From a virus, in UHGV virus genome UHGV-0192467: DNA of 42,538 nucleotides; one strand, written 5' to 3'. The position numbers and the translations under genes were made by a program. The notes under the pieces are model-generated. The model was not told the origin of the DNA. It saw only the letters and a list, made by a program, of their open reading frames with translations, and made no database searches. Below are positions 2,342-37,243 of this stretch, in pieces; the first letter of the stretch is position 1; each line of letters opens with the position of its first letter.

Positions 2342-3919
2342 TTACTTTGGCAGACGCGGGTAGATTTCGAGGGTGAGGCTTTCCAAAGGGGAATGGCCGC
2401 GCAGTGTTTTTGCGATTTTGAAGTAGACGATGTGGTCGATGACGGTTTTGAGCAGGGCGTTTTTTTCGGCGGGGTCGTCGGTGGCGGCATAGGCTTCCAA
2501 CACGTTTTTGACGAGGGGGGCGAATTCGGCCAAGACCTGTTCCATCGGCTTTTCCTTGGGGCGGAGCTGCTCAAGGGCATTTTGGCAGGCTTCGATTCGA
2601 GCGCGGAGATCGCGCTCACGCTCAAGGTATACGTCTACGGTGTATACGCCCTGCTCCAGCAGATCGCGCAGACGGGACAGCTGTTTGTTCAGCGTGGCGA
2701 TCTGCTTTTCCTGTGCCGCGCGGAGAGCGTCGTTGTTTTCGGTCTGCTGCTTCTGCTCCTCCGGGAGGCGGGATACGTCGTAGTCGACCCACGATTGCAG
2801 CGTATTTAGCACGACCTGCTCAACCGGGCGAAAGCGGATGCCAAAGCTGGTGCACGTGTTGATGTAGGTGCATTTGAGATATGCGCCGTCGAGGCCGCGG
2901 CCGGCGTTGCTCATGCGGACGGCGTAGCCGCAGTGGCCGCAGCGGATCAGCCCGGTGAGCGGATTGACGCATTTTCTCTTGCCGGGGATGGGCGCGTTTC
3001 GGCGGTCGACGATGAGCTCCTGCGCGCGGTCGAAAAGGGCCTCGTCGATAATGGCCTCGTGGTATCCGGGCACGACGATGTGGTCATCGGAGAGGGGACG
3101 CTTTTTGACCTTTTGACCATCCTGCATATGGACTTGCTCCCGGCGCTGATACCATTGCACGCAGCCCTTGTAGGTGGGATTTTTGAGGACGTTAAGCACG
3201 CGATCCGATTGCCACGGGAGGCCTTGGAGCGTCTTGACGCCCATGCTGTTGAGCCTGTTGGCAATGCGCTGGCACCCGAGGGTTTCGCCGTTTTCGCCGT
3301 GGAGATACCAGTCGTAGATTTTGCGCACGACTGCGGCCTGATCCTCGACGATCCTCAGCGACCACCCGCGCCGGTCGGGCAGCTTATAGCGCTCATAGCC
3401 ATAGATCGGGCGGCTGGAGACGTAATAGCCCTCCTTGACCGCGTTGACGCGGCCCGTCTGCATGCGGCGCTTGATCATCTGGTATTCGCGCCGGGCGAAA
3501 AAAAGGCGGATTTCGAAAAATTCGTTGTCCGCGGGGTCTTCCGGGTCGTACACCTTGAGCGGGGTGACGATCAACGTCTGGGAATACAAAAACGTCTGCG
3601 CGACAAGACCCTGATCCATCGTGTCGCCGCGGGCCAGACGGTCGATGTCCGCGACGAATACGCCGTTCCAACGGCCAAGCTCCACGTCCTGCATCAGGCG
3701 GCGCATTTCGGGGCGGTCGGCGATGGTGTCGCCGGAGACGATCTCCCGATAGACGGCCGATTCGGGGATGGGATGGCCGAGCATGCGCCCGGCCAGCTCC
3801 TGGAGCATCATGTAATGGCGCGCCAGCGTCTCACCGGCGCCCATGCGCTCCGCGTCGTCGTCCGCGCGGGATCGGCGCAGATACATGCAATAGCTGCCAA
3901 ATTTATTTACCGTATCCAT
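2342..3919 (-). CDS. int: large serine recombinase (integrase)
   Basis: YLRRS catalytic Ser motif, DIDRLAR motif, recombinase domain (PIYGY, VLKNPTYKG, HEAII), Zn ribbon CGHCG, coiled coil; 525 aa. Confidence 0.95.
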   Translation of the reverse strand: MDTVNKFGSYCMYLRRSRADDDAERMGAGETLARHYMMLQELAGRMLGHPIPESAVYREIVSGDTIADRPEMRRLMQDVELGRWNGVFVADIDRLARGDTMDQGLVAQTFLYSQTLIVTPLKVYDPEDPADNEFFEIRLFFARREYQMIKRRMQTGRVNAVKEGYYVSSRPIYGYERYKLPDRRGWSLRIVEDQAAVVRKIYDWYLHGENGETLGCQRIANRLNSMGVKTLQGLPWQSDRVLNVLKNPTYKGCVQWYQRREQVHMQDGQKVKKRPLSDDHIVVPGYHEAIIDEALFDRAQELIVDRRNAPIPGKRKCVNPLTGLIRCGHCGYAVRMSNAGRGLDGAYLKCTYINTCTSFGIRFRPVEQVVLNTLQSWVDYDVSRLPEEQKQQTENNDALRAAQEKQIATLNKQLSRLRDLLEQGVYTVDVYLERERDLRARIEACQNALEQLRPKEKPMEQVLAEFAPLVKNVLEAYAATDDPAEKNALLKTVIDHIVYFKIAKTLRGHSPLESLTLEIYPRLPK

Positions 3920-4260: not shown

Positions 4261-4761
4261 TTACATCAATGGCCACAGCGCGGCGAACATGTCTTCCGCG
4301 TAGAGCATCATGGCCGCAGAATACTGGATGTAGCCCCTGCCGGGGTGCAGCACGTCCCAGACGAGCAGGGCGATGATAAAGAGCATCTCCCCCATCGCTA
4401 TCGACCGCCACCAGACGAGGTTTTCGTGCAGGGTCGTGTGGACGCAGGAGGTCATCACGTCGCGGAACGCGCCGCGGCATGCCTCGGCCACGTCCTCGCG
4501 TATGAGGCAGAGGGGCGAGTGGGGCGCGGGCGAATCGGAGCCGTCCGGGGGAGGCGCGGCGAGGCCGCAGAACGAATCGACGCTCGCGCCGAAAAACGCG
4601 AGAATGGCGACGACGTCCTGAAACGACGGCCGGGCGGTCTGGCCGGAGAAGATGCTGCTGACGGTGCCCACGGGGATGCCGGTGCCGTCGGCGATCTGCT
4701 GATGGGTCATGTGCTGCTGTTCCTTGAGGAGATTCAGTTCGGCGCGCAAATCCATATTCAT
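4261..4761 (-). CDS. XRE-type HTH protein with C-terminal transmembrane segment
   Basis: HTH MTHQQIADGTGIPVGTVSSIFSG..RPSF; hydrophobic MLFIIALLVWDV. Confidence 0.8.
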   Translation of the reverse strand: MNMDLRAELNLLKEQQHMTHQQIADGTGIPVGTVSSIFSGQTARPSFQDVVAILAFFGASVDSFCGLAAPPPDGSDSPAPHSPLCLIREDVAEACRGAFRDVMTSCVHTTLHENLVWWRSIAMGEMLFIIALLVWDVLHPGRGYIQYSAAMMLYAEDMFAALWPLM

Positions 4762-5193: not shown

Positions 5194-5649
5194 TCACTGG
5201 GCTTTTTCGTCGGAATGGGCGTCGATGACGCGGGCGGTCAGGTACTCGCCCACGTCCGGCTCGGGCTCGCCCTCGGCGCGGGCCTTGGCCACGGCGGCGG
5301 CGAATCCCTCGAGGATTTCCTCCACCAGATGGCGGCGCGGCTCGTCCAGCTGGAGATAGGTCGTCAGGATGGCCCGGAGAATCGGGCTGCCGTGATACGC
5401 CCGCACCAGCTGATCCACAAGGGCCTGATCGTCTTGGGAATGCGGCTGAAACATGTCGCCTTTTCCAGTTTCGAGCCATTCGCGATTGACACCAAGATTA
5501 TCGCAAAGCAACATGAGCGTAGAACCTGAAGGCTTGTTTCGCCCTCTTTCGATGTTCGAGACAGCGGATTCAGAAATTCCGAGGAGTGTGCCGAGCTGTT
5601 TCAACGTAAGCCCCTTTGCTTTTCGAGCTTCCTTAATTCGCTTTTCCAA
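5194..5649 (-). CDS. CI-like XRE-family repressor
   Basis: HTH LTLKQLGTLLGISESAVSNIERG; VNREWLETGKGDMF; TTG start with GGAGGTG RBS; divergent from the early operon. Confidence 0.9.
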   Translation of the reverse strand: MEKRIKEARKAKGLTLKQLGTLLGISESAVSNIERGRNKPSGSTLMLLCDNLGVNREWLETGKGDMFQPHSQDDQALVDQLVRAYHGSPILRAILTTYLQLDEPRRHLVEEILEGFAAAVAKARAEGEPEPDVGEYLTARVIDAHSDEKAQ

Positions 5650-8333: not shown

Positions 8334-8405
8334 ATGGCGCAGTGGTTTGGGATCGCCTTCGGAACGGCGTTTCTGATCTGGTTCGACCGGGAGGCGGGCC
8401 GATGA
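8334..8405 (+). CDS. 23-aa hydrophobic peptide
   Basis: AAGGAG upstream; ATGA coupling to the next gene; MAQWFGIAFGTAFLIWFDREAGR. Confidence 0.45.
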   Translation: MAQWFGIAFGTAFLIWFDREAGR

Positions 8406-8800
8406 GCGTGGTTTTTGACGAAAAATGGCTGGCGGAGTACTGCGCCCGGACGGGGATGGCCCCGCCCGAGGGACGGAAGAAGGAGGCTCCGAAGCGGAGC
8501 AAGTACGGCAGCGAGAAGGCCGAAGCCGGCGGGCGCGTCTTCGACAGCCGGCACGAGGCGGAGTGCTTCGGGCGGCTGGAGCTGGAGAAGAAGGCCGGGG
8601 AGCATCGGGCGGTGCTGTGTCAGGTGGCGTTTGAGCTGCCGGGCGGCATCAAGTACATCGCGGATTTTGTCACGCTGGAGCCGGACGGCACGTATCGCGT
8701 GTGGGACGCGAAGAGCGCGGCCACGGCGCGGGACAAGGTGTACCGGCTGAAAAAGCGCCTGATGCGGGAGTGCCTGGGACTGGAAATCGCGGAAATCTGA
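8402..8800 (+). CDS. DUF1064-like PD-(D/E)xK endonuclease
   Basis: SKYG...FDSRHEA...QVAFEL...YIADF...WDAKS. Confidence 0.8.
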   Translation: MSVVFDEKWLAEYCARTGMAPPEGRKKEAPKRSKYGSEKAEAGGRVFDSRHEAECFGRLELEKKAGEHRAVLCQVAFELPGGIKYIADFVTLEPDGTYRVWDAKSAATARDKVYRLKKRLMRECLGLEIAEI

Positions 8801-8842
8801 GGGGCGAAAGTCCCTCTGAAGAATAAAAGGAGGCTGTTACAC

Positions 8843-9178
8843 ATGAAACAGACGGCATACAGCGGCGGCGAATCGGTGGTGGGCGAGATCATCCGCACGG
8901 CGGAGCGGTCGGCGCTGAAGCACGAGGGCGAAAACGGGCTGCGCACGCGCCTGACCCGGCTGGTCAAGCGCTACGAGAAGGAATTCCGAGGCAAGACGGC
9001 CTTTCTGGCCGCCAGCGCGGCGGTGGAGCGGAAGCGGCTCAACGAGCGGCTGGACGTGCTGATGCTGAAAAACGCGCCGGACGAATGGCTGGCGAGGCTC
9101 TGGCACGAGATGCACGCACTGGACATTGCGGCGCAGCTGCTGATGGGAGGGCGCGAGGGGTATGTGGGAATTGCCTGA
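8843..9178 (+). CDS. hypothetical helical protein
   Basis: AGGAGG RBS; 111 aa. Confidence 0.75.
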   Translation: MKQTAYSGGESVVGEIIRTAERSALKHEGENGLRTRLTRLVKRYEKEFRGKTAFLAASAAVERKRLNERLDVLMLKNAPDEWLARLWHEMHALDIAAQLLMGGREGYVGIA

Positions 9179-9194
9179 GGGCACCATTGGGGGG

Positions 9195-9416
9195 AAACGA
9201 AACGGAATAGAAGTGCTGCGAACAGCAATGGAGAAGCAAGGCGCTGCAGGGAACAGCAGAGCAACGGAAAAGTTGAGCTCTGATATGAGCGGACAGGGAA
9301 ATGGGACGATATGCAATGCGCCGAGCTGACATGGAATTGAATGGATACGCGTGGCGAGGCGAAGAGACGGAAAAGCAATGACAGGCGATGAGCAGCGGAG
9401 ATAAGGAAAAGACACG
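9195..9416 (+). repeat. periodic pentamer array (putative guide-like ncRNA)
   Basis: 43 consecutive pentamers ending in G, 41/43 starting with A or C; single extra G at 9205, 9231, 9267, 9298, 9334, 9370, 9406; junction consensus ANGGARWWG in 7/7. Confidence 0.85.
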
Positions 9417-9434
9417 CACAAGGAGGAAGCCCGC

Positions 9435-10028
9435 GTGAAAGAAATGACAATCACGATCACCCTGACAGAGGAAGCATTGGGCATGATGCCCGCGAACCCT
9501 GAAATCTACCGCGACTACATCGCCAGCAATGCGCCCGACGCGGCGAAGCTGGCGGAAGAGATCGAAGAAAACGGCGTGGACGCGATGGTGGAGAACGGCA
9601 CCACCGTTTTCCCGAGGCTGGAGGACGGTCGCCCGTTCTTTTGGGACTACCAAATTCGTGGGATGTTTAAGGATTCGATCGGCATGCTTCGCCGCGTTCC
9701 GGGGACGGCGTGCAGCAAGGTCAAAGCCTACAAAAAGATCGTCGACGGTCTGATTTTTGTTCGGGAGCGCAGGATTCCCGTGGAGGTGTGCGGCAAGATG
9801 GGTAACTGTCAGCGCGCACTGCGCACGGATGGCCCGACGGGCAGCCACACCGCGCTGGCCAGCAGCGAGACCGTTCCGGCGGGCAGTATGATGGCGCTGA
9901 CGATTGTGATGCTGACAGACGATCTGGAGGCAGTCGTGCGGGAATGCCTGGACTACGGCGCACTGCGCGGCCTCGGACAGTGGCGCAATTCCGGCAAGGG
10001 CCGGTTTACGTGGAGGGAAGTATGCTGA
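9435..10028 (+). CDS. stand-alone Cas7-like RAMP-fold protein
   Basis: AGGAGG RBS, GTG start; ITITLTEEALG, PFFWDYQIRGMFK, ETVPAG and C-terminal Gly-rich loop GLGQWRNSGKGRF. Confidence 0.8.
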   Translation: MKEMTITITLTEEALGMMPANPEIYRDYIASNAPDAAKLAEEIEENGVDAMVENGTTVFPRLEDGRPFFWDYQIRGMFKDSIGMLRRVPGTACSKVKAYKKIVDGLIFVRERRIPVEVCGKMGNCQRALRTDGPTGSHTALASSETVPAGSMMALTIVMLTDDLEAVVRECLDYGALRGLGQWRNSGKGRFTWREVC

Positions 10029-10186
10029 CGCAGATCATCAAGGCGGTGCTCATCGCTTACATTTTCCTGATCGGCGGCATTGCCGGTTACAACCTTGCCC
10101 TGCTGGGCTTCGGCCTGCGGAGCTTCGACGGAGAGTTTGAGGAGGAGAGCGACAATGGACAGAATCGCGACATGCAGCATCATTAA
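10022..10186 (+). CDS. small membrane protein
   Basis: GGAGG RBS; single TM segment. Confidence 0.6.
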   Translation: MLTQIIKAVLIAYIFLIGGIAGYNLALLGFGLRSFDGEFEEESDNGQNRDMQHH

Positions 10187-10466
10187 GGGCAACGGCGGCG
10201 TGGAGGCCTACGTCAACGGCGTGGTTTCCGAGGAGCTGCGCCGCCAGAACGCCATCCGGGAGGCGGAGGAAGCCGCCCTGCGGGCGGAGCTGGCCGTGAC
10301 CCGAGCGCGGCGCAACCGGCTGCTGGCCGAAGACCTGCGGCTGCGGCGAACCGTGCGGAAGCGCCCGCTGCGCCAGCGCGTGCGGGACAGGATCGCGGAC
10401 GGCTGGGCGTGGGTGATGGGGTGCATCGTTACCTATCCCAAGCTGATCAAAATGTGGAAGCAATGA
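10155..10466 (+). CDS. hypothetical protein
   Basis: GGAGGAG RBS; basic coiled coil. Confidence 0.7.
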   Translation: MDRIATCSIIKGNGGVEAYVNGVVSEELRRQNAIREAEEAALRAELAVTRARRNRLLAEDLRLRRTVRKRPLRQRVRDRIADGWAWVMGCIVTYPKLIKMWKQ

Positions 10467-10681
10467 CGCGGACAATCGAATGGGTGGACAAGCGGGATCG
10501 GATGCCCACGGCGGCGGATGCAGACGCTGTGGGCGCGATCCTGGCGTGGAACGTCCACGACGGACTGCATCTGACCAACCCGGCGGTGTTTCGATCGTAC
10601 GGGACTTTTTACACCCATTGGGCGACGCCGCCCGAGGGGCCGGAGGGGGCGGGAGGCACATGGGAGAAACGGAAAATCTGA
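10463..10681 (+). CDS. hypothetical phage protein (DUF551-like)
   Basis: ATGA overlap; EWVDKRDRMP...THWATPPEGP pattern. Confidence 0.65.
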   Translation: MTRTIEWVDKRDRMPTAADADAVGAILAWNVHDGLHLTNPAVFRSYGTFYTHWATPPEGPEGAGGTWEKRKI

Positions 10682-11415
10682 AATCCGAGACGGGATGCAC
10701 GGTGCGGGATTACATGCTGGCGGCCGTCGAGGCGGCGGGGAGCGGGCGGAAGCTCGCCGAGGCCATCGGGAGAAACGAGGAGCGAATTTACAACTGGGCG
10801 AGCGAGGAGCAACTGCCGAAGGTACGGATGCTGCTGGAAATCGAGGGGAAATCGGGCGTGAGCCTGGACGAATATCTGCCGGAGATACGGCGGGGCATGC
10901 GAGCCGTGGAGGAGATGCGCAAAGCCGGTCAGGGGATCAGCAAAAGAGACAGGGCCGCGCTGGGAATCGGGCACAACAGCTGGTGCGATTACATGAGAGG
11001 CGACAGAGCGGCGGATGGACTGAGCCTGACCACGCTGTTTGCAGCGTGCCGGTTTTTCGAGGGAAAAATTAAGCCGATGCCGAAGCCGCCGCGGAAGAAG
11101 CCCAGGCCGGCAGCCGAGGGAGAGCTTGTGATCAAAGCGGAGCCGACGGCCAAACCGACGCGGAAGCTGTCGGCGGAGGAAATGCGGCGGGAAATGGCCT
11201 ACGGGTTTTACAGGCAGGCGATGGGCACGGGAGACGCGAGGGACTTCGACTTCGGGGAAGCGGCGGACGGGAGCTATCGATTCCGGACGGCGCACTACGA
11301 CGGGATTATCGACCTCAGGGCGATGGAGCTGCGGGTGATTTTCCGCAGGACGGGACATATCAGCATAAGGAGGGATCTGCATGCGGGACAGGCCATGCCC
11401 GTGCCGCGGCTGTGA
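10660..11415 (+). CDS. HTH DNA-binding protein with two HTH-like segments
   Basis: SGRKLAEAIGRNEERIYNW and AALGIGHNSWCDYMRG; GGGAGG RBS. Confidence 0.65.
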   Translation: MGETENLKSETGCTVRDYMLAAVEAAGSGRKLAEAIGRNEERIYNWASEEQLPKVRMLLEIEGKSGVSLDEYLPEIRRGMRAVEEMRKAGQGISKRDRAALGIGHNSWCDYMRGDRAADGLSLTTLFAACRFFEGKIKPMPKPPRKKPRPAAEGELVIKAEPTAKPTRKLSAEEMRREMAYGFYRQAMGTGDARDFDFGEAADGSYRFRTAHYDGIIDLRAMELRVIFRRTGHISIRRDLHAGQAMPVPRL

Positions 11416-11550
11416 GACGCGGGCGGAGGGATGCCGCGCCAACTGCCCGAGGGACTACGGCTACAGCGAGTGGGCGGCGGAGCACGCGGCAAATCGGGCC
11501 GCGGACGAAGGGCGAAGAAGGCGCGGAAGAATGCGGAGGAGGGAGAAGGC

Positions 11551-12092: not shown

Positions 12093-12645
12093 ATTTGTGG
12101 AAGTCATGCGGCAGGCACGGAGAATGTGCAGCACTCAAACGTGCTGTGAAGATTGCCCGCTATGCTACGAAAATAACGGCGCGAATTGTCGATTTGCGCT
12201 CGATGAAAAGTATCAGGCCGATGCTGAACTAGAGCGTGTCGTGTCAGACTGGGCCGCAGAGCATCCCGAGCCGGTGTATCCGAGCTGGGAAGAGGCGTGG
12301 AAGAAACTGTTCCCGGAGATGGATTCGGTGAGGCCTCCGTGCGTACGGTACTTTTTGCCAACGGGGGAGTACCAGGATATTTGCGACCGATTCGACGGGG
12401 AGTGCTATAAATGCAATGAGCTGCCTGTCCCCGCAGAGGTCGCGAAGAAACTGGGGATCAGGCCGATTGAGATCAAAAAGCCGGTCAGCTGCAGAACGTG
12501 CAAATATAGTAACAAATCCGTGTGGGAAGCGCCGTGCGGGACTTGCAAGCGTGCGCATGGCGATTGTTACCCTGACCAGAGAGAGGAAGAGAACGATGCC
12601 GCCGAAAAGCGCGGAGAAGCTGGGATTAAGCCGAAGGAGAAATGA
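12085..12645 (+). CDS. Cys-rich hypothetical phage protein
   Basis: AGGAGG RBS; several CxxC motifs. Confidence 0.7.
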   Translation: MAEFVEVMRQARRMCSTQTCCEDCPLCYENNGANCRFALDEKYQADAELERVVSDWAAEHPEPVYPSWEEAWKKLFPEMDSVRPPCVRYFLPTGEYQDICDRFDGECYKCNELPVPAEVAKKLGIRPIEIKKPVSCRTCKYSNKSVWEAPCGTCKRAHGDCYPDQREEENDAAEKRGEAGIKPKEK

Positions 12646-14255
12646 AGATGACGTTGGGCAGTCTTTTTGACGGGAGCGGAGGTTTTCCCCTCGCCGGGGC
12701 GCTCTCTGGCATCCGCCCGGTCTGGGCGGCGGAGGTGGAGCCGTACCCCATTGCGGTGACGCGCTCCCGCTTCCCGGAGATGCGGCACCTCGGCAGCGTG
12801 ACCGGGGTGCATGGCGACAAGGTGCAGCCGGTGGACGTGATTACGTTCGGCTCACCCTGTCAGGATATGTCTGTGGCAGGCAAGCGCGCCGGGATGAAGC
12901 ACGAGGAAAACGGCGACGATCAGACCACGCGAAGCGGCCTGTTTTACGAGGCCGTCAGAATTATAAGAGAAATGAGGCAAGAAACCAATGGTCGGTATCC
13001 AACTTTCGCTGTTTGGGAAAACGTGCCCGGAGCCTTCAGCAGCAACAAAGGCGAGGACTTCCGATGCGTCCTCGAAGAATTCGTCCACGTCTGCGACGAA
13101 AAACTGTCAGTGCCTCGACCTGCGAACGGACGCTGGAATACTGCCGGAGAGATCGTGGGCGACGGCTACAGCGTCGCGTGGAGGCAGCTCGACGCGCAAT
13201 ACTGGGGAGTGCCCCAGCGTCGCAAGAGAATCTACCTTGTGGCAGATTTTGCAGGCGGACGCGCCGGAGAAATATTATTTGAGCGCGAGGGCCTGCGAGG
13301 GCATCCTGCGGCGTGCGGAGCGCCGGGGCAAGGCGCTGCCGCCCAAGCTGCGGGAGGCGCTGGAGGAAGCCGTGATGCTGGGCGCGTGATGAGCTTTAAG
13401 CCGGGGCAGGGCGCGAAGGCGCGAACGCTCGGTGAATCGGAAACGACCGTACCGACACTTGCCAGCGAAGCAGGCGGAAACGCGGTGCCTGGGGTATGTT
13501 ATCCAAGCATTTTCCATACGCTCACTGCTCAGAATGCAAGGAACCCGGAAAGCGCGCAGCAGCCGAATTGCATCTGCTACCCACAGGTCGCCCGGACGCT
13601 GACGGCGGAAGCGGATGCGTCTCCCTGCATTGACCGCGGGCAGAACGTTGTGTGCTACGACGCACGCGGCAACGGCGATGGCACACATTGTCCCACGCTG
13701 ACCGGCGACCATGAAAACCGCGTGACGGACTACACGGCAATCTGCGTTTCGGAGCATACTCCCGCCTACGGCGTGGACTGCCATAATATCATCTGCTACG
13801 GCGGAGACAAGGCGGGAACGCTGGATGCCTCATACTACAAGGGCACTGGCGCACGAAATGGCAAGGAGAGGGAATTCATCGCAGAACGCAAGACTGGGCT
13901 ACCGCGCAAGTACATCATTCGCCGCCTGACGCCGCTGGAATGCTGCCGCTTGCAGGGCTTCCCCGATGGCTGGGGCGTCCCCGACCACAAGGACAGGCTG
14001 TCCGACGAAGAGCTGGCGTTTTGGCAGCAGGTACGCGACACTTCTGCGTCCATTGCGGGGAAGCAGCCCAAGAAATACAGCGCGGAGGCGCTGACCAAAT
14101 GGTACAACTCCATGCACACGGATAGTGCAGAGTACAAAATGTGGGGCAACGGCATCGCGCTCCCATGCGCAGCATTCGTGCTGGGCGGCGTCGCCGAGGA
14201 ATTAAGGATCTGGCCGAAGGAGGAGTTGAACGATGCCAAAATACATCGACGCTGA
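12642..14255 (+). CDS. DNA (cytosine-5) methyltransferase
   Basis: motif I LFDGSGG, IV GSPCQD, VI WENVPG, VIII PQRRKR, RRLTPLEC.RLQGFPD, X GNG; no cognate restriction enzyme adjacent. Confidence 0.95.
   Translation: MKMTLGSLFDGSGGFPLAGALSGIRPVWAAEVEPYPIAVTRSRFPEMRHLGSVTGVHGDKVQPVDVITFGSPCQDMSVAGKRAGMKHEENGDDQTTRSGLFYEAVRIIREMRQETNGRYPTFAVWENVPGAFSSNKGEDFRCVLEEFVHVCDEKLSVPRPANGRWNTAGEIVGDGYSVAWRQLDAQYWGVPQRRKRIYLVADFAGGRAGEILFEREGLRGHPAACGAPGQGAAAQAAGGAGGSRDAGRVMSFKPGQGAKARTLGESETTVPTLASEAGGNAVPGVCYPSIFHTLTAQNARNPESAQQPNCICYPQVARTLTAEADASPCIDRGQNVVCYDARGNGDGTHCPTLTGDHENRVTDYTAICVSEHTPAYGVDCHNIICYGGDKAGTLDASYYKGTGARNGKEREFIAERKTGLPRKYIIRRLTPLECCRLQGFPDGWGVPDHKDRLSDEELAFWQQVRDTSASIAGKQPKKYSAEALTKWYNSMHTDSAEYKMWGNGIALPCAAFVLGGVAEELRIWPKEELNDAKIHRR
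12988..13389 (+). CDS. nested alternative-frame ORF inside the MTase (beta-polypeptide-like)
   Basis: GAGG upstream; STLWQILQADAPEKYYLSARACEGILRRAERRGKALP. Confidence 0.6.
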   Translation: MVGIQLSLFGKTCPEPSAATKARTSDASSKNSSTSATKNCQCLDLRTDAGILPERSWATATASRGGSSTRNTGECPSVARESTLWQILQADAPEKYYLSARACEGILRRAERRGKALPPKLREALEEAVMLGA

Positions 14256-14550
14256 AGTGCTTAAAGCGGCTGTAAGCGCGTATTGTGACAAAACAAAGCC
14301 GTGCTCCACGATTTCTGTCGCGGGTCTAATCCCGGATGTAGTGATTCATGATGTGCTGGACATCATCGACGAGGCCCCTGCCGCCGACATGGTGGAGGTT
14401 GTCAGGTGCAGGGACTGCGTGTGCATGGGCAAGCGGCCTCCGCTGCCCGAGGGCTACCGGGAGGATTGCGGATGGTGCATGCTGCATGGGCGCGTGGTAC
14501 TGCCGGAGGATTATTGCAGCAATGGAGAGAGGATGGATGACGATGCTTGA
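14233..14550 (+). CDS. hypothetical phage protein
   Basis: AAGGAGG RBS; KYIDA...APAADMVEVVRCRDC...DYCSNGER. Confidence 0.75.
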   Translation: MPKYIDAEVLKAAVSAYCDKTKPCSTISVAGLIPDVVIHDVLDIIDEAPAADMVEVVRCRDCVCMGKRPPLPEGYREDCGWCMLHGRVVLPEDYCSNGERMDDDA

Positions 14551-14980
14551 AATACGCCCAATCACGCTTAGAGCAGCAAGCGCCTACATCAATGCATATC
14601 ACCGTCATCACCGTGCAACGGTTGGATGCAAGTTTGCGATAGGGTGCTTTGACGGCGAGACGATGGTCGGGTGCGCGGTGTGCGGACGGCCTGTTTCGCG
14701 CATACTGGACGATGGCCTGACGCTTGAGGTCAATCGCGTATGCACCGATGGCACCCGCAATGCATGCTCAATGCTATACGGTGCGGCATGCCGGATTGCG
14801 AAGGCGATGGGATACCGAAAAGTAGTCACCTATACATTGCAATCCGAAAACGGTGCATCGCTGAAAGCCAGCAATTTTGTTTGTGAGGGGCTGGCAGGTG
14901 GGGAAAGATGGACGGGAACGCGCGGAAGTGGCCAGAATTTGCCGTGCGAAATGAAAATCAGGTATGTAAGGAGGCTATAA
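14543..14980 (+). CDS. XF1762-like protein (possible GNAT/Mom-like DNA-modifying enzyme)
   Basis: HRHH...GRPVSR..DDGLTLEVNRVCTDGTRNACSMLYGA..R.AKAMGY...TYTL..E.G.SLKA. Confidence 0.7.
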   Translation: MLEIRPITLRAASAYINAYHRHHRATVGCKFAIGCFDGETMVGCAVCGRPVSRILDDGLTLEVNRVCTDGTRNACSMLYGAACRIAKAMGYRKVVTYTLQSENGASLKASNFVCEGLAGGERWTGTRGSGQNLPCEMKIRYVRRL

Positions 14981-14981
14981 A

Positions 14982-15641
14982 GTGAGATCACCCGAAGAGA
15001 TCAAGAAGGGGCTGGAGTACTGCTCCGAAAAAGCGAAAAGAAAGACAAACTGCTCTGAATGCATCTATTTCAACGACCCATGCGGATGGTGCTCAACGGC
15101 AATTACGAAAGATGCCCTCTCCTACATCCAACAGCTCGAAGCGCAGCAGCCGCGCTGGATCAGCGTCGGGGAGCGGCTGCCGGACGTGAAGATCGACGGA
15201 AACACTTCCGACGGCTACCACACATTCAACGAGCTGTACCACCATCGCGCAGTGTTGTTCTCGGTGATTGTAAAAGCATTCCCGGAGCGGGCATGGAAGT
15301 CCAGAAAGCATCACGATGGTACGATGTACGACGGGATGTTTATCGTCGGGATCGACACGCCGCAGGGGCAGGCGACCTATCACTACGACGTTGACCCTTA
15401 TTGGGAGATGTTTGCTTGCCGTGAGCTTGACCATGCGCCGGAATGGGACGGTCACACGCCAGCGGAGGCAATCACCCGAATCGGTGCACTTGAGCCGGTG
15501 CGGCACGGGAGATGGAAACACAGCGAATATAGGAATTCGCTGCCGATATGCTCAGTTTGCGGACACACCGGTTGCATCGATTGGGTAGCGCGCCCTAACT
15601 GCGGCGTGCGAATGGACGGAGGCGAGGCAGATGGTAGTTGA
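14982..15641 (+). CDS. mosaic phage protein with a WDGH-motif domain
   Basis: SDGYHTFNELYHHR...AWKS..H.DG...TP.GQ.TYHY...EWDGH; Cys-rich ends. Confidence 0.7.
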   Translation: MRSPEEIKKGLEYCSEKAKRKTNCSECIYFNDPCGWCSTAITKDALSYIQQLEAQQPRWISVGERLPDVKIDGNTSDGYHTFNELYHHRAVLFSVIVKAFPERAWKSRKHHDGTMYDGMFIVGIDTPQGQATYHYDVDPYWEMFACRELDHAPEWDGHTPAEAITRIGALEPVRHGRWKHSEYRNSLPICSVCGHTGCIDWVARPNCGVRMDGGEADGS

Positions 15642-15915
15642 TATAACGCCGCGGCAGTGCGAGATACTCGCCCAATTTATCTTCGACCACTGGCACGGGG
15701 CGGAGGAATACAAGGACGACGTTGACGGCATGCTGGAACTGCTCAATGCGCAGAAGGCGTTGGAGAAGGCCAGCAAAGATTGCAAGGATTTTACCCCAAG
15801 GCCGTACATCCCCTACATAGATTATGGCTGCAAGGCGGCGGGGAAAAGCCGGTCGGAACCCCGCCGCCGGGGAATCAAGATCGAAATCAAGTGGGAAAGG
15901 AGCGAAAAGGAATGA
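15631..15915 (+). CDS. hypothetical protein
   Basis: overlaps both neighbours in the operon. Confidence 0.6.
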   Translation: MVVDITPRQCEILAQFIFDHWHGAEEYKDDVDGMLELLNAQKALEKASKDCKDFTPRPYIPYIDYGCKAAGKSRSEPRRRGIKIEIKWERSEKE

Positions 15916-16226
15916 AAACCAAAGATATGATGGTCTTTGACTGGGACAAGGCCGCACGGCTGATTGCGCAGAGAAAGCCTCGGATTGCGATGGCTGGGCT
16001 GCGCGGGGACTGGGAATTTACCGGCGGCGTGATCTATGAGGACGGGAAACTGATCACGGACAAGTACACCTACCTCGCGTCTCCGTGGGCCATCCCGGAG
16101 CTTGACATGGACGGAGAAACCGTAGCTTGTTTCCGCTTTGCGTCACAAACGCCGAGGTGGGATGCGCATACCAAATGGCCCAAGAGCGCGGTGGAAATCT
16201 ATAGGGAGCAGCTTGAGGAGGGTTGA
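15912..16226 (+). CDS. hypothetical protein
   Basis: ATGA overlap; MVFDWDKAARLI. Confidence 0.7.
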   Translation: MKTKDMMVFDWDKAARLIAQRKPRIAMAGLRGDWEFTGGVIYEDGKLITDKYTYLASPWAIPELDMDGETVACFRFASQTPRWDAHTKWPKSAVEIYREQLEEG

Positions 16227-16228
16227 CA

Positions 16229-16372
16229 ATGGCGATTGCCGGAATTCTGTATTTCGTTTGGCCGCTCTTATATGCTTTGATGGCGGGAGAAGAATTTTCA
16301 TGCAATATGATGGCTTTGACCGCGGCAATTGTTGTTGCCGGTGCTTTGGCTGGGCGAAAGGGGGACGTGTAA
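16229..16372 (+). CDS. small two-TM protein
   Basis: GAGGAGG RBS; 47 aa hydrophobic; translated by hand. Confidence 0.55.
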   Translation: MAIAGILYFVWPLLYALMAGEEFSCNMMALTAAIVVAGALAGRKGDV

Positions 16373-16512
16373 TGATCGCCATCTGGATCGCAATCGGTGT
16401 CGTCGCCGCGCTGGGCCTTGTGACGGTGTACGCCTGCATCGTCGCCGGGAGCGACGTGGACGATGAATATGAGCGGTGGAAAGAGACGAGGCATAAGGAG
16501 GAGGACGAATGA
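16372..16512 (+). CDS. small single-TM protein
   Basis: TAATG overlap; MIAIWIAIGVVAALGLV. Confidence 0.6.
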   Translation: MIAIWIAIGVVAALGLVTVYACIVAGSDVDDEYERWKETRHKEEDE

Positions 16513-17433
16513 ATGCTGATGCAGCAGATCATCGGCGCGGACGGGGTCATCCGCACGAAGCTGGATATCGCAATCCATCGATTTAAGTCGTTTGAGCCGC
16601 CGGAGGGCTACTATCTCGCCTTCTCTGGCGGCAAGGACAGTCAGTGTATCTATCACCTTGCAAAGATGGCAGGCGTAAAATTCGACGCTCATTACAACGT
16701 GACCAGCGTCGATCCTCCAGAGCTTATCTATTTCATCCGTGAGCATTATCCCGACGTAATCTTCAATTATCCCAGAGACAAGGATGGTAAGCGGATTACG
16801 ATGTGGAATCTCATTGTCAAAAACAAAATACCGCCCACGCGGCTCGCGAGATATTGCTGCCAATCGCTCAAGGAATCTCAGGGCAAAGGGCGAATCACAG
16901 TCACGGGCGTTCGCTGGGCAGAATCGACGCGGAGAAGAGCCAATCAGGACGTCGTAAACATCCAGAACAAGCCCAAATCAACGCGGAAACTCGCCGAGGA
17001 CGTGGGAGTAAATTATCGACTGAATAAAAACAAAGGCGTAATACTCAATGATGACAACGATCCGAGCCGCAGAATGGTCGAGCAGTGCTACCGCACACAG
17101 AAGACGCTGGTCAATCCCATTGTTGACTGGGAAGACGAAGAAGTATGGGAATTTTTGAACAACGTTGTGAAAGTCCCGCATTGCTGCCTGTACGACGAGG
17201 GGTTTGCCCGCATCGGATGTATTGGATGTCCTCTCGCCAAACAGAAACAACAGCGCGAACAGTTTAAGCGCTATCATAAATATCGCGAAATATATGTCAG
17301 AGCTTTTGACCGTATGATAAAAAAACGTAAAGAGGACGGACTACCGACCACTTGGGAAACCGCCGAGGACGTCATGTCATGGTGGGTAGGAGCGTCTGAA
17401 AACAAGAAAGATAAGGAGGAGGACGAAAAATGA
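16513..17433 (+). CDS. PAPS reductase-family (PP-loop) protein
   Basis: FSGGKDS, RYCC, GVRWAES..R, NPIVDW, RIGCIGCP. Confidence 0.9.
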   Translation: MLMQQIIGADGVIRTKLDIAIHRFKSFEPPEGYYLAFSGGKDSQCIYHLAKMAGVKFDAHYNVTSVDPPELIYFIREHYPDVIFNYPRDKDGKRITMWNLIVKNKIPPTRLARYCCQSLKESQGKGRITVTGVRWAESTRRRANQDVVNIQNKPKSTRKLAEDVGVNYRLNKNKGVILNDDNDPSRRMVEQCYRTQKTLVNPIVDWEDEEVWEFLNNVVKVPHCCLYDEGFARIGCIGCPLAKQKQQREQFKRYHKYREIYVRAFDRMIKKRKEDGLPTTWETAEDVMSWWVGASENKKDKEEDEK

Positions 17434-32372: not shown

Positions 32373-35300
32373 TTACGATCTACGACAGCCGGGAGACGGA
32401 CTTTTCGACGCTGGGTCTGTGCGTATTGCAGCCTACGGAATGCACAATCGAAGGCGAAGAAAACGGAATGATGGAGCTGAGCATGACCCATCCGATGGAC
32501 AAGGATGGGCGATGGCTCAATCTCGCCGAATACAACATCATCCGCGCGCCCGCGCCGGTGCGCGAAACGCCGCTAATCCGCGTGCTGGACAACCCGGGCG
32601 CGTCGGGCAAGACGGCCACGCGGACGATCTGCAAAGTGAAAACCTACACGGGCAAGCGGCTGAGACTGCGCGCGAAGCCCAGCACCAGCGCAAAGGTGCT
32701 GGGCTATTATGCGCCCGGAACGGAGGTCGTGCGGCTGAGCGTCTCCGGCGACTGGGCGCAGGTGGTGATCGTAAAGGGCGGCGCGTCGGGATGGATGAGC
32801 AACGAGCGCCTGCAGGTGGTGCGCACGGAGACGGAAAACGTCTCCGGAAGCGGCACCGAGAACGTCAGCAAGTGCATCGAGCCGCGGCAGACCCGCGAAC
32901 AGCTCTTTCGCATTTGCGAGGTGGAAACGGACGACGAAGCCGGTCTGGTGTACGTCACGGCCAAGCACATCTTTTACGATCTCGCATACAACACAGTCAA
33001 GGGTGACTATTCCCCGGACGGCGCGGCGGTCGGTGAGGTCTGCGCGCAGCTGCTGGCGCGGGCGCTCGATCCGCATGATTTTACGGTCTATTGCAACGCA
33101 GAGGGGACGGTCACCGGCGATTACGGGCGCAAGGGAATCGCCAGTTGTCTGCTGGAGAGTGAAGTCGGCGTGGCCGACCAGACGGGTGCGAAGATCGTGC
33201 TGGACAACTACGACGTGTTTATCCTGAAGGACGAGACGAGGGACAACGGCGTGGAAATCCGGCACGCGAAAAACATGACCGGCGCGACGCTGAAGAAGAA
33301 CGTGGAATCCACCATTACCCGCATCGTGCCGGTGGGCAAGGACAAAAATGGTGACCCGCTGCCGCTGCCCAACGGCGAGTATGTGGAAACGCCGCGGGCG
33401 GCGAGTATCCCGGTGATCCACAGCAAGGAAATCGAATACGACGTGAGCGTCGGGAAGAACGAGGGCGAGTACAAGGACAACGCGGCCGCCTATGCCAAAC
33501 TCAGAGAGCTGGCAACGGCAGATTTTGCGGACAACGCGCTGGATGCGGTAACGGTCGGCCTCGACGTGGACTTTGTCATCCTGGAAAACAGGCACTCGGA
33601 GAGCTACGCGGCCTATGCGGCGCTGCAGACCATCCACATGGGAGACACGGTGCGTGTGGTGTCGTCCCGCTCCGGGATCGACGCAAAGCTGCGCATGACG
33701 GGATTTACCTACGACGCGATGTATCCCAACGGTGGACGATACAAAAAGGTCAGGCTGGGACAACTGACCGACCTGAAAACGCAGGTATATGGCTTTGACA
33801 TCGCCCGAGGGACAACGCCGGGAAACAAAATCCTGCCGAACAGCCTGGACGGACAGGCGGCGCTGAAGAACGCCACCATCGGCTACGCGAAGATCGCCCA
33901 GGCGGCCATTGAGCAGCTGGCGGCGGACAGCATCGTGGCCATCCGGGCGGACATCCACGAGATCGTGGCGGGCAGCGTGACGACGGATCAGCTGTATGCC
34001 GACCTCGCCAGACTGGCCGTGGCGCAGATCACCACGGCGAACATCAAGGAGGCCAATATTGACTGGGCGCAGATCGCCGAGCTGACGGCGCAGATCGCGA
34101 ATATCTCCAAGGCGCAGATCACGACGGCGAACATCAATGCGGCCAATATCAACTGGGCGCAGATCACGTCCCTGTCTGCGGCCATCGCGGATATCGCGAC
34201 GGCCAAGATCGGCGAAGCGGAGATCAAGTCGGCGCAGATCACCGATCTGGAGGCGGAAGTCGCGCGCATTGCGGCGGCGAAGATCGCCGTGGCGGACATC
34301 GACTGGGCGCATATCAAGGACTTGGTGGCGGGCACGGCCATATTTACCGCGGGTGTGGGCGACAAGCTGCATATCGCGCGGCTGGCCGTCACCGAGGCGA
34401 ATATGGTCAGCCTGAGCGTGGGCGAGCTGCTGGTCAAGGGGCAGGACGGCTCGTTTTACTCCGTATCCGTGGACGCGAATGGGAACATCGTCACCGAGAA
34501 AAAGCAGGTCGTGAACAGCGACGTGAAAGACCTTTCCATCAACGCCGGGGAGAAGATCATCGAAGGCACGGTCACAGCGGCATGCCTCAATGCCAACGAC
34601 ATCTTTGCCAACAACGCGACCATCAAGCAGCTCATCGCGGCCAACATCGACGTGGACACGCTGTTCGCGCGGGAAGCGACTATAAATTCGATCAACGCGA
34701 TGGATATTCGCGGGAACAAGTATTTGCAGCTGTATGTGACGGACAAGGTTGACGGCATCGCCGTCGGCGGGCGGAACCTGCTGCGGAACACGAATCAGGG
34801 AACGGTCAACTGGGACTGGTCTATGCAGACAGGTGGGAAAACCATCGAAGAGTATCTGGATGGCGGCGTGCGCGCAGTTAAGATGACGAGGGACGCTACG
34901 CCTCATGCGGGATGGAGCGTTATATCCTACGCAATTGGAAAAGACGCATACGCCCTGCTGGAACCGGACGCGGAGTATATTGTCAGCATGGACTACAAGT
35001 CCACAGTCGCGGCCCCTAATGGTATCAGCGTCAATATTTGTACCGGAGAGGCTACGGATCATGCAATCCAGACCGCGACATACGATCAGGCGATACCGGC
35101 AGATGAATGGACGCATATCGCAGTGCCAATTAAAACGAAGTCTGCACTCCCTGCCTTCAATTATCAGCTTGTATACCTTACGGGTTTTTCCTCTGCCGTC
35201 AACTCAGTTCACATCTTCAAAAACCTGAAGCTCGAAAAGGGCAACAAGGCGACGGACTGGTCGCCTGCGCCGGAGGATATTGAGGAACGAATGAGCGCGG

Positions 35301-37243
35301 CGGAGCTGAAGATCGAGCCGGACGCGATTGTATCCACCGTCACCAGCTCGGCGAGCTATAAGACGCTGAGCAGCAAGGCCGACGACAACGCGACTGATAT
35401 CACGGGACTGAAGACCCGTATGACTACGGCGGAATCGAAGATCGACCAGAAGGCCGACAGCATTACGCTGAGCGTGCTGGAGACGAAGGTTGACGGCATC
35501 TCTGTGGGCGGTAGGAATCTGCTGCGGAACACGAATCAGGGAACGGTCAACTGGGACTGGTCTATGCAGACAGGCGGGAAAACCATCGAAGAGTATCTGG
35601 ATGGCGGTGTTCGGGCAGTCAAGATGACCCGAGATGCGGTGGAACAGACAGGCTGGAGCATTATAAGCTACGCGGTCAGCGAAGACGCATACGCCCATCT
35701 GGAGCCGAACACGGAGTACACGCTGAGCTTCGATTACAAGCCGTCGGTCGCGACGGCAAACGGAGTTATGTTTTCCATCCGAAGAGACGACGGCTCGAAC
35801 GCTGCAACGAATGAAGGCGGCTACTGGAAAGAGATTCCGGCAAATGAATGGACGCATGTCTCGGGTACATTCACGACGGTTGAAAACATTCCGGATTTCT
35901 TGCTTTACTCCACCGAAATCTTTATTGTGGGACTACCGGCGACAGTCAACTCCGTTCACATCTTCAAAAACCTGAAGCTGGAAAAGGGCAACAAGTCCAC
36001 GGACTGGTCACCTGCGCCGGAAGACCCGGCGGGCAGTCTGAGCGTGAACAGCGACTACAGCAAGGTGGACATCAACACCGAACGAGTGAGGATTGTCTCG
36101 AAGCGCATGGAGGTGGCCGTGCCGTCGGAGGACGGCGAGGACGATGTGCTGCGCGTGGACGCGGACGGCGTGCATGCAGAGGTGGTCGAGGCGGATCGGA
36201 TTGTGTCGGACTCTGTGGTGCATACTCATGGCGCGGCGAGCTATACTCCGGCGAATGCTGGCGAACTGGCGGCGATTCTGGAGGAGCTGAGTGGGAAGAC
36301 GCTCACCGGAGCAGTTGTGATTAACTGCGCAAATGTCACCGGCGGAACCGTTGCATTGAGCGGTATTCAGGCGGCAGGCGGACGACTCGAAATTGATAAT
36401 GGAACCTTCGGCGAAGTTACGATTACTGACTGTCAGGCATCCGTGTATTTTTACGGGAGTATAGTGGAGAACGCAAACCTATGTATCGGGATTTACAGAT
36501 CGCAATACGTCCACTTAGATGCGGTAAAAATAAGCGGAGACCTTGGGTTACAATTGGGCTACGAAAGTAATAGCGGTGGAGTATTGGGCGGAAATGTGAT
36601 TATGATTTCGTGCACAGGAAACTGCTATTCACTGGCGCGATTGGGGTATTGTTCAGTCTTGCGAATGATTGGCAGTTCGAAGCCGAGCGGGATTATCCAG
36701 TGCGCGGCGGGTAGCGAGGTCTACAACGCCACGCCCGATCCGACGTTCACCGCCGCCAGCTCGCCGAGCATTCCCACGACCCAGACGGTTATGGTGAGTC
36801 TGTCTCCCACAAGCACATCCACCAGCGGGTACGGCAGCAAGCTCTATCAGGGCCGCTATAGCAGCTCTCAGTCGTTGCGTAAGGGAGTGATGCTGTTTAG
36901 TCTGCCCAGTGATCTGACCAGCGCGGACAAGATCGACTCTGCGACGCTGACGATCAAGCGCATCGGCGGCGTGGGTCAGGGCGGCGGTGTGAGCGTGCAT
37001 TTGCGGTGCTACGATGTGCCGGGCACACTCTATGCCAGCAAGACGGCGTATGAAAACCAGACGGTGAGCATCGACGTGACCTCGGCGGTCAAGGCCATGA
37101 AGACCCATGGATATGGCGGGCTGATGCTCTACAATCCCGACACGACGACCGCGGGCAGCAAGTCTTACACGGCGAGCTATTCGCGGTTCGCGGGCAAGGG
37201 CGAATCGGGCGCGCCGGTGCTGAAGATCAGCTACAGGAAGTGA
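32369..37243 (+). CDS. Tal-like tail spike / host-recognition protein
   Basis: MITIYD start with ATGA overlap; N-terminal phage tail domain with an SH3-like insert; A/I repeats; two GGRNLL...DWSPAPED modules. Confidence 0.85.
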   Translation: MITIYDSRETDFSTLGLCVLQPTECTIEGEENGMMELSMTHPMDKDGRWLNLAEYNIIRAPAPVRETPLIRVLDNPGASGKTATRTICKVKTYTGKRLRLRAKPSTSAKVLGYYAPGTEVVRLSVSGDWAQVVIVKGGASGWMSNERLQVVRTETENVSGSGTENVSKCIEPRQTREQLFRICEVETDDEAGLVYVTAKHIFYDLAYNTVKGDYSPDGAAVGEVCAQLLARALDPHDFTVYCNAEGTVTGDYGRKGIASCLLESEVGVADQTGAKIVLDNYDVFILKDETRDNGVEIRHAKNMTGATLKKNVESTITRIVPVGKDKNGDPLPLPNGEYVETPRAASIPVIHSKEIEYDVSVGKNEGEYKDNAAAYAKLRELATADFADNALDAVTVGLDVDFVILENRHSESYAAYAALQTIHMGDTVRVVSSRSGIDAKLRMTGFTYDAMYPNGGRYKKVRLGQLTDLKTQVYGFDIARGTTPGNKILPNSLDGQAALKNATIGYAKIAQAAIEQLAADSIVAIRADIHEIVAGSVTTDQLYADLARLAVAQITTANIKEANIDWAQIAELTAQIANISKAQITTANINAANINWAQITSLSAAIADIATAKIGEAEIKSAQITDLEAEVARIAAAKIAVADIDWAHIKDLVAGTAIFTAGVGDKLHIARLAVTEANMVSLSVGELLVKGQDGSFYSVSVDANGNIVTEKKQVVNSDVKDLSINAGEKIIEGTVTAACLNANDIFANNATIKQLIAANIDVDTLFAREATINSINAMDIRGNKYLQLYVTDKVDGIAVGGRNLLRNTNQGTVNWDWSMQTGGKTIEEYLDGGVRAVKMTRDATPHAGWSVISYAIGKDAYALLEPDAEYIVSMDYKSTVAAPNGISVNICTGEATDHAIQTATYDQAIPADEWTHIAVPIKTKSALPAFNYQLVYLTGFSSAVNSVHIFKNLKLEKGNKATDWSPAPEDIEERMSAAELKIEPDAIVSTVTSSASYKTLSSKADDNATDITGLKTRMTTAESKIDQKADSITLSVLETKVDGISVGGRNLLRNTNQGTVNWDWSMQTGGKTIEEYLDGGVRAVKMTRDAVEQTGWSIISYAVSEDAYAHLEPNTEYTLSFDYKPSVATANGVMFSIRRDDGSNAATNEGGYWKEIPANEWTHVSGTFTTVENIPDFLLYSTEIFIVGLPATVNSVHIFKNLKLEKGNKSTDWSPAPEDPAGSLSVNSDYSKVDINTERVRIVSKRMEVAVPSEDGEDDVLRVDADGVHAEVVEADRIVSDSVVHTHGAASYTPANAGELAAILEELSGKTLTGAVVINCANVTGGTVALSGIQAAGGRLEIDNGTFGEVTITDCQASVYFYGSIVENANLCIGIYRSQYVHLDAVKISGDLGLQLGYESNSGGVLGGNVIMISCTGNCYSLARLGYCSVLRMIGSSKPSGIIQCAAGSEVYNATPDPTFTAASSPSIPTTQTVMVSLSPTSTSTSGYGSKLYQGRYSSSQSLRKGVMLFSLPSDLTSADKIDSATLTIKRIGGVGQGGGVSVHLRCYDVPGTLYASKTAYENQTVSIDVTSAVKAMKTHGYGGLMLYNPDTTTAGSKSYTASYSRFAGKGESGAPVLKISYRK
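34745..36025 (+). repeat. two ~535-bp direct-repeat modules within the tail gene
   Basis: 34745-35277 and 35486-36025 have near-identical 5' and 3' ends and diverged middles. Confidence 0.85.

Follow-up and report, generated by a model that had tools for sequence, protein, structure and literature searches.

Does a 197-aa RAMP-like protein encoded in a phage genome, together with the five-nucleotide-periodic sequence that precedes its gene, constitute a minimal RNA-guided system as an earlier note on this DNA proposed, and if so, to which class does it belong and how might its guides be read? We addressed these questions by computational analysis of the locus and of its homologues.

A two-part cassette in a temperate phage

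The window, which is the whole stretch of 42,538 nucleotides analysed here (virus genome UHGV-0192467), is a temperate tailed phage. It carries a serine recombinase gene at 2342-3919 (Pfam/PHROGs), repressor-like genes at 4261-4761 and 5194-5649, and genes for terminase, an SPP1-type portal, major head protein, tape measure, endolysin and holin. The periodic array and its adjoining gene, which we term vipr, reside in the early rightward operon and are composed of the following features.

8843..9178, + strand: upstream phage ORF of 111 aa, common to the relative G001; outside the cassette and not a conserved neighbour
9179..10021, + strand: inserted cassette of array plus vipr, missing in G001
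9195..9416, + strand: candidate vrRNA array of punctuated pentamers, 43 units of [A/C]NNNG; start possibly at 9185
9206..9230, + strand: segment 1, 5 pentamers, candidate single guide (putative role)
9232..9266, + strand: segment 2, 7 pentamers
9268..9297, + strand: segment 3, 6 pentamers
9299..9333, + strand: segment 4, 7 pentamers
9335..9369, + strand: segment 5, 7 pentamers
9371..9405, + strand: segment 6, 7 pentamers
9421..9426, + strand: ribosome-binding site AGGAGG, 4 nt past the last pentamer (from the sequence)
9435..10028, + strand: vipr gene, 197 aa, GTG start at 9435, single RAMP domain (AF2, Foldseek, VIA, HHalign)
10022..10186, + strand: downstream small ORF of 54 aa that overlaps the vipr stop; homologue in G001, outside the cassette

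The nearest relative found, G001, is 97% identical to the window at 8376-9174 and 10175-11505. Only about 215 bp separate these matched flanks in G001, and they encode a counterpart of the small ORF at 10022-10186; the vipr protein has no homologue in this genome (94% complete, with the empty site itself covered). Because the flanks are so similar and yet the cassette is absent, array and gene are one insertion of approximately 845 bp without a third part. A consensus scan 5′ of the array revealed no sigma-70-type promoter, and therefore the array is probably co-transcribed with the early operon.

The gap-free parse reported earlier was reproduced exactly. All 43 pentamers between 9195 and 9416 end in G, and 41 of them begin with A (25 units) or C (16 units). 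Seven single extra Gs are located at 9205, 9231, 9267, 9298, 9334, 9370 and 9406, the choice of the 'extra' residue within each boundary run of Gs being a matter of parse, and two further pentamers on the 5′ side may place the start at 9185. The end of the array 4 nt before the AGGAGG element of a 197-aa ORF was likewise confirmed. Whereas the array forms a chain of 43 units, the longest chain of G-ending pentamers is 10 outside the array (both strands of the window) and 16 in 5000 shuffles of 9179-9434. Within the array, the autocorrelation of G reaches 0.48 (lag 5) and 0.55 (lag 36), compared with approximately zero for the whole window. In each of the seven pentamers preceding an extra G, the third base is A. 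Folding of the array RNA (-45.8) is no better than that of shuffled sequences (-42.2 ± 4.3), and the four RNA runs, in contig form, cover next to none of the array.

The earlier statement that no other cas gene or repeat-spacer array is present also held. No cas family was matched among 40 window ORFs in Pfam or 25 in PHROGs, no repeat-spacer array was evident in the window when the 20 largest direct-repeat families (of at least 60) were inspected, and Rfam gave no match in the window. The locus has neither the cas operon nor the repeat-spacer array of class 1 CRISPR-Cas, and is a minimal viral locus surrounded by temperate phage genes. Two other features of this phage are DNA-modification genes near the cassette at 12642-17433, which encode a C5 methylase, a Mom-family protein and a PAPS-reductase-domain protein, and a 1671-aa tail protein with internal duplicated domains (34745-35763 and 35198-36024, about 741-747 nt apart).

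The protein is a predicted RAMP related to Vipr

An AlphaFold2 model of the 197-aa protein (pLDDT 81.9, pTM 0.76) displays RAMP topology, with a predicted thumb at residues 123-147 and a G-loop at 179-189. A Foldseek search with this model gave Csm3/Cas7 as the best matches (best E 5e-7), and VIA matched Csm3, type VII Cas7, Cmr and Csf2 chains with Z-scores of 12.0, 11.8, 11.5 and 11.3 (rmsd 3.8 over 156 positions at Z 12.0, and 2.8 over 137 at Z 11.5). The top structural matches are RAMPs only, which supports the RAMP fold suggested from the sequence. No Vipr structure is among the fold-search matches, the structure library ending in April 2026. No corresponding family exists in Pfam, PHROGs, NCBIfam or PADLOC, and the single protein has no sequence match in the PDB.

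More specific information came from aligning the family profile with that of the Vipr protein of phage SUSP1. HHalign joined the two families over 183 columns, colinear end to end, with probability 79% and E 1.6e-5, and single-sequence and BLAST comparisons with SUSP1 Vipr were not significant. At the level of sequence profiles, homology to the SUSP1 Vipr family is thus present but remote. In this alignment W178 and R179 of SUSP1 are kept as W183 and R184, and the Vipr-type G-loop residues are invariant across the representatives of the family. Cryo-EM of SUSP1 Vipr shows that H17, R138 and D177 read the two guanines of the repeat (10.64898/2026.04.26.720927). All three are replaced in the family of the window: H17 corresponds to M17 in the window protein and to T in 51 of 66 representatives, R138 to E145 (E or D in 66/66), and D177 to Q182 in 66/66.

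The family is large. Of 4,748 candidate proteins (90% clustering), 4,371 are homologues at E 0.001 or better, and a profile search with the vipr family retrieved 1,977 clusters at 50% identity. Two long homologues (P0131 and P0143, 432-458 aa) contain two matched stretches each, and possibly represent tandem or fused Vipr forms.

Punctuated arrays accompany the gene throughout the family

We examined the flanks of homologues for the same periodicity, using the best 80 of at least 598 viral loci and the best 80 of 109 prokaryotic loci, plus the window. According to their record labels, the prokaryotic loci derive mostly from gut Clostridia, with some Coriobacteriia and others. The loci fall into 91 groups by shared DNA. 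Of the 161 sequences, 157 (156 of the 160 homologous loci, and the window) carry a same-strand array no more than 1.5-2 kb away from the gene. The array parser used scoring weights that were set from these same arrays; applied to 80 terminase loci from other phages, 1.14 Mb in total, it detected no array. The punctuated array that had been noticed in a single locus is therefore a property of the family. It may lie on either side of the gene, with 77 upstream and 88 downstream arrays among the 161 sequences, and it typically extends from an upstream stop codon to near the next ribosome-binding site.

The punctuation is also regular. Of 2,218 extra bases, 2,136 are G (the parser penalises other bases), 66% of internal segments in the 66 representatives contain 5-7 pentamers, and the variance of segment length in these representatives is 8.8 compared with 32.6 under random placement. 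The last pentamer before a boundary is mostly C-[A/G]-A-N-G, a pattern to which the parser itself contributes in part. In middle pentamers the entropy at positions 1 to 4 is 1.62, 1.90, 1.98 and 1.98 bits, respectively, with A at 31% of first positions and G at only 24% of fourth positions.

The arrays are hypervariable in sequence. None of the other arrays, including those next to 90%-identical proteins, contains a run of three pentamers from the window array, and the 160 homologous loci yield more than 1,000 distinct segments. In the related loci L001, L002, L004 and L005, common segments have been gained, lost, duplicated and reordered as blocks; local duplications of pentamers also occur among relatives. 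No accessory gene is conserved, the top neighbour family (an SSB-like phage gene) being present in only 11 of 91 groups, and no common 3′ tail motif across lineages was visible when the 3′ flanks were read by eye.

Several loci have unusual arrangements. The longest array found, in L081, comprises 285 pentamers (about 1.47 kb) located 1540-68 nt upstream of the gene. Three loci, L117, L142 and L108, have extra arrays that are detached from vipr and dispersed over the early region. In L117, arrays lie approximately 6.4, 5.8, 3.3, 2.9 and 0.7 kb upstream of the gene, immediately downstream of it and 1.9 kb further on its downstream side; in L142, one lies 2 kb upstream.

The locus probably belongs to the staggered NNNNG kind of VIPR

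The characteristics described above are those of VIPR systems: a RAMP with a predicted RRM core, thumb and G-loop, homology to Vipr, and a flanking array of NNNNG type. In its available text, the 2026 VIPR preprint lists NNNGG, YNNNG and NNNNG repeats and describes staggered arrays with 1-nt offsets (10.64898/2026.04.26.720920; Methods and legends of Fig. S17-S18). As far as its text and legends allow the comparison, its staggered NNNNG systems resemble the window in having a proviral stand-alone RAMP of about 20 kDa, an adjacent 5-nt-periodic array in which only the last G is fixed, and 1-nt offsets between runs; the regular 1-nt register shifts of our array fit the legend of Fig. S18. In the same text, the sRNA-seq support concerns ribozyme and single-vrRNA types rather than staggered arrays, and targets are analysed only for types II, III and V.

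Type II VIPR, represented by phage SUSP1 (Vipr YP_009199429.1) and P. fulva, shares with the window the colinear profile alignment, the G-loop W and R residues and the pentamer period. In contrast to the GGY/NN repeats of SUSP1, however, the window has [A/C]NNNG units; its runs of 5-7 are contiguous and tailless, whereas SUSP1 produces separate vrRNAs with 9-16 repeats and a structured tail; and SUSP1 carries vap1, whereas the window cassette has no accessory gene. The canonical GGY triad, structured 3′ tail and vap gene of type II are absent, and H17/R138/D177 are replaced by T(M)17/E145/Q182. The locus is a VIPR system, most likely of the staggered NNNNG kind, and does not belong to type II.

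Non-canonical arrays described elsewhere also place non-GGY pentamers beside a Vipr-like fold. Passages of that preprint report 21 clusters with motifs such as GAC/NN, CAC/NN, WGT/NN and TGH/NN, the last of which is close to N-G-H/NN, and do not mention 1-nt punctuation of the kind seen in the window (10.64898/2026.10.21.760802). The words 'staggered' and 'NNNNG' do not occur in passages of a further preprint (10.64898/2026.10.15.759431). The backbone RAMPs of class 1 CRISPR systems (Csm3, Cmr4/6, type VII Cas7 and Csf2) are alike in fold, thumb and G-loop, but the window locus lacks another cas gene and a repeat-spacer array, and its step is 5 nt rather than 6 nt.

The resemblance to VIPR-type systems suspected earlier is therefore borne out by the Vipr profile alignment and the family-wide array. 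The suggestion of a distinct variant fared less well: the motif does differ from GGY/NN, but its novelty was overrated, because the text of 10.64898/2026.04.26.720920 already names NNNNG repeats and staggered arrays, which places motif and punctuation within described VIPR diversity. System class, motif and staggered arrays are in print; what is new here is the lack of an accessory gene, tail or own promoter, and the family-wide replacement of guanine-pocket residues (R138 to E145 and D177 to Q182). No paper devoted to this vipr branch was found in the literature covered, which excludes subscription journals. As a clean case without accessory genes, the locus exemplifies the VIPR architecture that has been tested least, and G001 offers a natural relative lacking the cassette.

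Proposed mechanism and search for targets

Because the array exceeds chance, the protein model is RAMP-like, the family aligns with Vipr, array and gene are linked across the family and the punctuation is regular, we consider it probable that this two-part cassette works as a VIPR system that silences rival DNA by means of short guides. The array would be transcribed as part of the early mRNA and, by analogy with SUSP1, one Vipr subunit would bind each pentamer to form a filament. The extra Gs would mark off guides of 5-7 pentamers, each corresponding to about one filament turn, and single guides might be released at these residues, as in the staggered-array model of the VIPR preprint. Such guides could pair in a gapped manner with double-stranded DNA, using two bases per pentamer with a one-base skip, and repress without cutting, by a transcription block, the cassette having no nuclease or accessory gene. 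Likely targets would be co-infecting phages or other mobile elements. Two observations run counter to short guides: the segments contain fewer units than type II vrRNAs, which have 9-16 repeats, with 10-14 bases implying low specificity, and they lack the 3′ tail that caps SUSP1 vrRNAs. If the segments are indeed guides, a small protein with a multiplex array of almost no fixed sequence would make an attractive programmable repressor.

Searches for targets in 3.4-8.6 Mb of local DNA gave nothing above shuffled guides under any decoding rule. Chance-level results were obtained with 12 decoding rules applied to 70/131 long segments and with exact k-pentamer matches in 13 rule-length combinations. 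Seed-and-extend searches across boundaries, run in 16 variants with 163 arrays on 8.6 Mb, likewise did not exceed shuffles, and neither did tests for convergence of segments within 3-kb bins (30 variants) or searches of related-phage sets (238 sampled segments) and of mobile regions of five host genomes. When 994 segments were compared with 217 repressor-upstream regions, 13 matches of at least 12 bases were found versus 8.8 expected (p ~0.06, in one of 33 variants), and 772 dereplicated segments showed no enrichment of -35 or -10 promoter motifs. With both registers discussed below, the segments of the window find no perfect match within the window itself. Sequence collections were scanned by exact matching with relatives' segments, whereas the window's own segments were searched in fetched loci. 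The collection scans (decoded motifs from relatives' long segments) gave 2, 21 (about 9 independent groups) and 2 matches, which are consistent with chance and unrelated to the phage group of the window, and two metagenome scans with decoded motifs gave 0 and 0. The power of these searches is low, because the guides would specify 10-14 bases, collections were matched exactly and the candidate DNA amounts to a few Mb.

One candidate was considered and rejected. Under the one-skip rule with positions 2-3 pairing, four segments of L078 match perfectly within 820 bp of the G040 repressor region (L307:13880-14701). Two of the four are adjacent in the cI/cro intergenic switch, which fits the P. fulva precedent, and one of the sites is also present in three further repressor-upstream clusters. 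The score was 32 and shuffles peaked at 28, but 29-32 was attained with other rule variants; moreover, the two phages have no DNA in common and differ in GC content (52% versus 41%), and the enrichment follow-up was not significant.

Alternative functions for the array

The same observations could be explained if the array is never cut, with Vipr coating the early mRNA as one filament in which each extra G forms a bulge about once per helical turn. The modal segment length of 5-6 equals the 5-6 subunits per turn given for the SUSP1 filament in the text of 10.64898/2026.04.26.720927, no promoter, terminator or tail of the array's own was found, and arrays reach from an upstream stop codon to just 5′ of the next ribosome-binding site, where a coat would also damp translation of vipr itself. 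Yet allowing for 0 or 1 extra target base revealed no long match across boundaries, related loci have gained, lost and reordered whole segments, and in the 88 of 161 loci with a downstream array it cannot cover the vipr ribosome-binding site. We regard an uncut array as unlikely. Still less probable is that the protein is a decoy or anti-CRISPR RAMP for which the array serves as a scaffold without targeting information, an idea that draws on the closest folds (Csm3 and type VII Cas7) and the empty target searches. Hypervariable arrays of up to 285 pentamers in strict register would be superfluous for a scaffold, and the invariance of the Vipr-type G-loop residues also argues against such a role. 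Finally, local pentamer duplications among relatives might indicate neutral low-complexity DNA grown by slippage, but the units differ in sequence and yet retain one G. This origin, to which we assign a negligible probability, is refuted by strict gene linkage and strand bias (157/161), by the regularity of punctuation and by the absence of arrays from 1.14 Mb of control phage DNA.

Possible register of the guide and the pocket code

Given that short-guide VIPR silencing is the preferred function, it is necessary to consider which bases of each pentamer pair. We somewhat favour the register N-G-[A/C]/NN, in which pentamer positions 2-3 pair and each segment would provide 10-14 specified bases over 15-21 bp. 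This arrangement accords with the series from YNNGG to NNNNG in print. Lineages differ at position 1 by far more than sampling would explain, and much less so at positions 2-4; the sequence pattern at position 1 is like that of a base read by the protein, with a preference that depends on the lineage. Counter to this register, positions 3 and 4 are matched in entropy (1.98 and 1.98, versus 1.90 at position 2), and substitution counts at positions 1-4 in the closest pairs are 25, 14, 26 and 26.

These last data favour a different code for the same system, with a fixed triad G-[A/C]-N and pairing by positions 3-4, or by three bases without a skip, which we hold to be a tentative alternative. Here the exchange of SUSP1 R138 for E145 would convert the second guanine pocket into a pocket for the amino bases A and C. 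In agreement with this, the residue aligned to R138 is E145 or D in 66/66 representatives, position 1 is 82% A+C compared with 65% C+T in the family, every lineage has much A and little C at position 2, and both entropy and substitution counts are highest at positions 3 and 4. On the other hand, the motifs NNNNG, YNNNG and TGH/NN in the available preprint text match the register in which positions 2-3 pair, and searches under a rule with positions 3-4 pairing likewise gave no target.

A more ambitious proposal combines several of these elements: the 4,371 proteins would form a gut-phage VIPR branch with a re-coded guide, in which A/C is read through the Arg-to-Glu change of the thumb, a tailless array within the early mRNA is cut at a one-base punctuation once per helical turn into the shortest known RNA guides (26-36 nt), and a single 197-aa protein acts with no partner. 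Taken as a whole, we consider this doubtful. The locus does make testable both the processing of tailless staggered arrays and the manner in which Vipr pockets alter the repeat code.

The pocket code may already vary in nature. In a subclade with W74 and H178 (L061, L111, L120 and L121), position 1 is pyrimidine-dominated (YNNNG), with A in at most 10% of units, and both residues face the Y3 pocket of SUSP1. This coincidence in one subclade, which stands against the code with positions 3-4 pairing, suggests weakly that position 1 is placed in a Y3-type pocket; the association of W74/H178 with position 1 has a Mann-Whitney p of 0.05 over four related loci, and three other W74 loci differ. The subclade might therefore represent a natural specificity switch.
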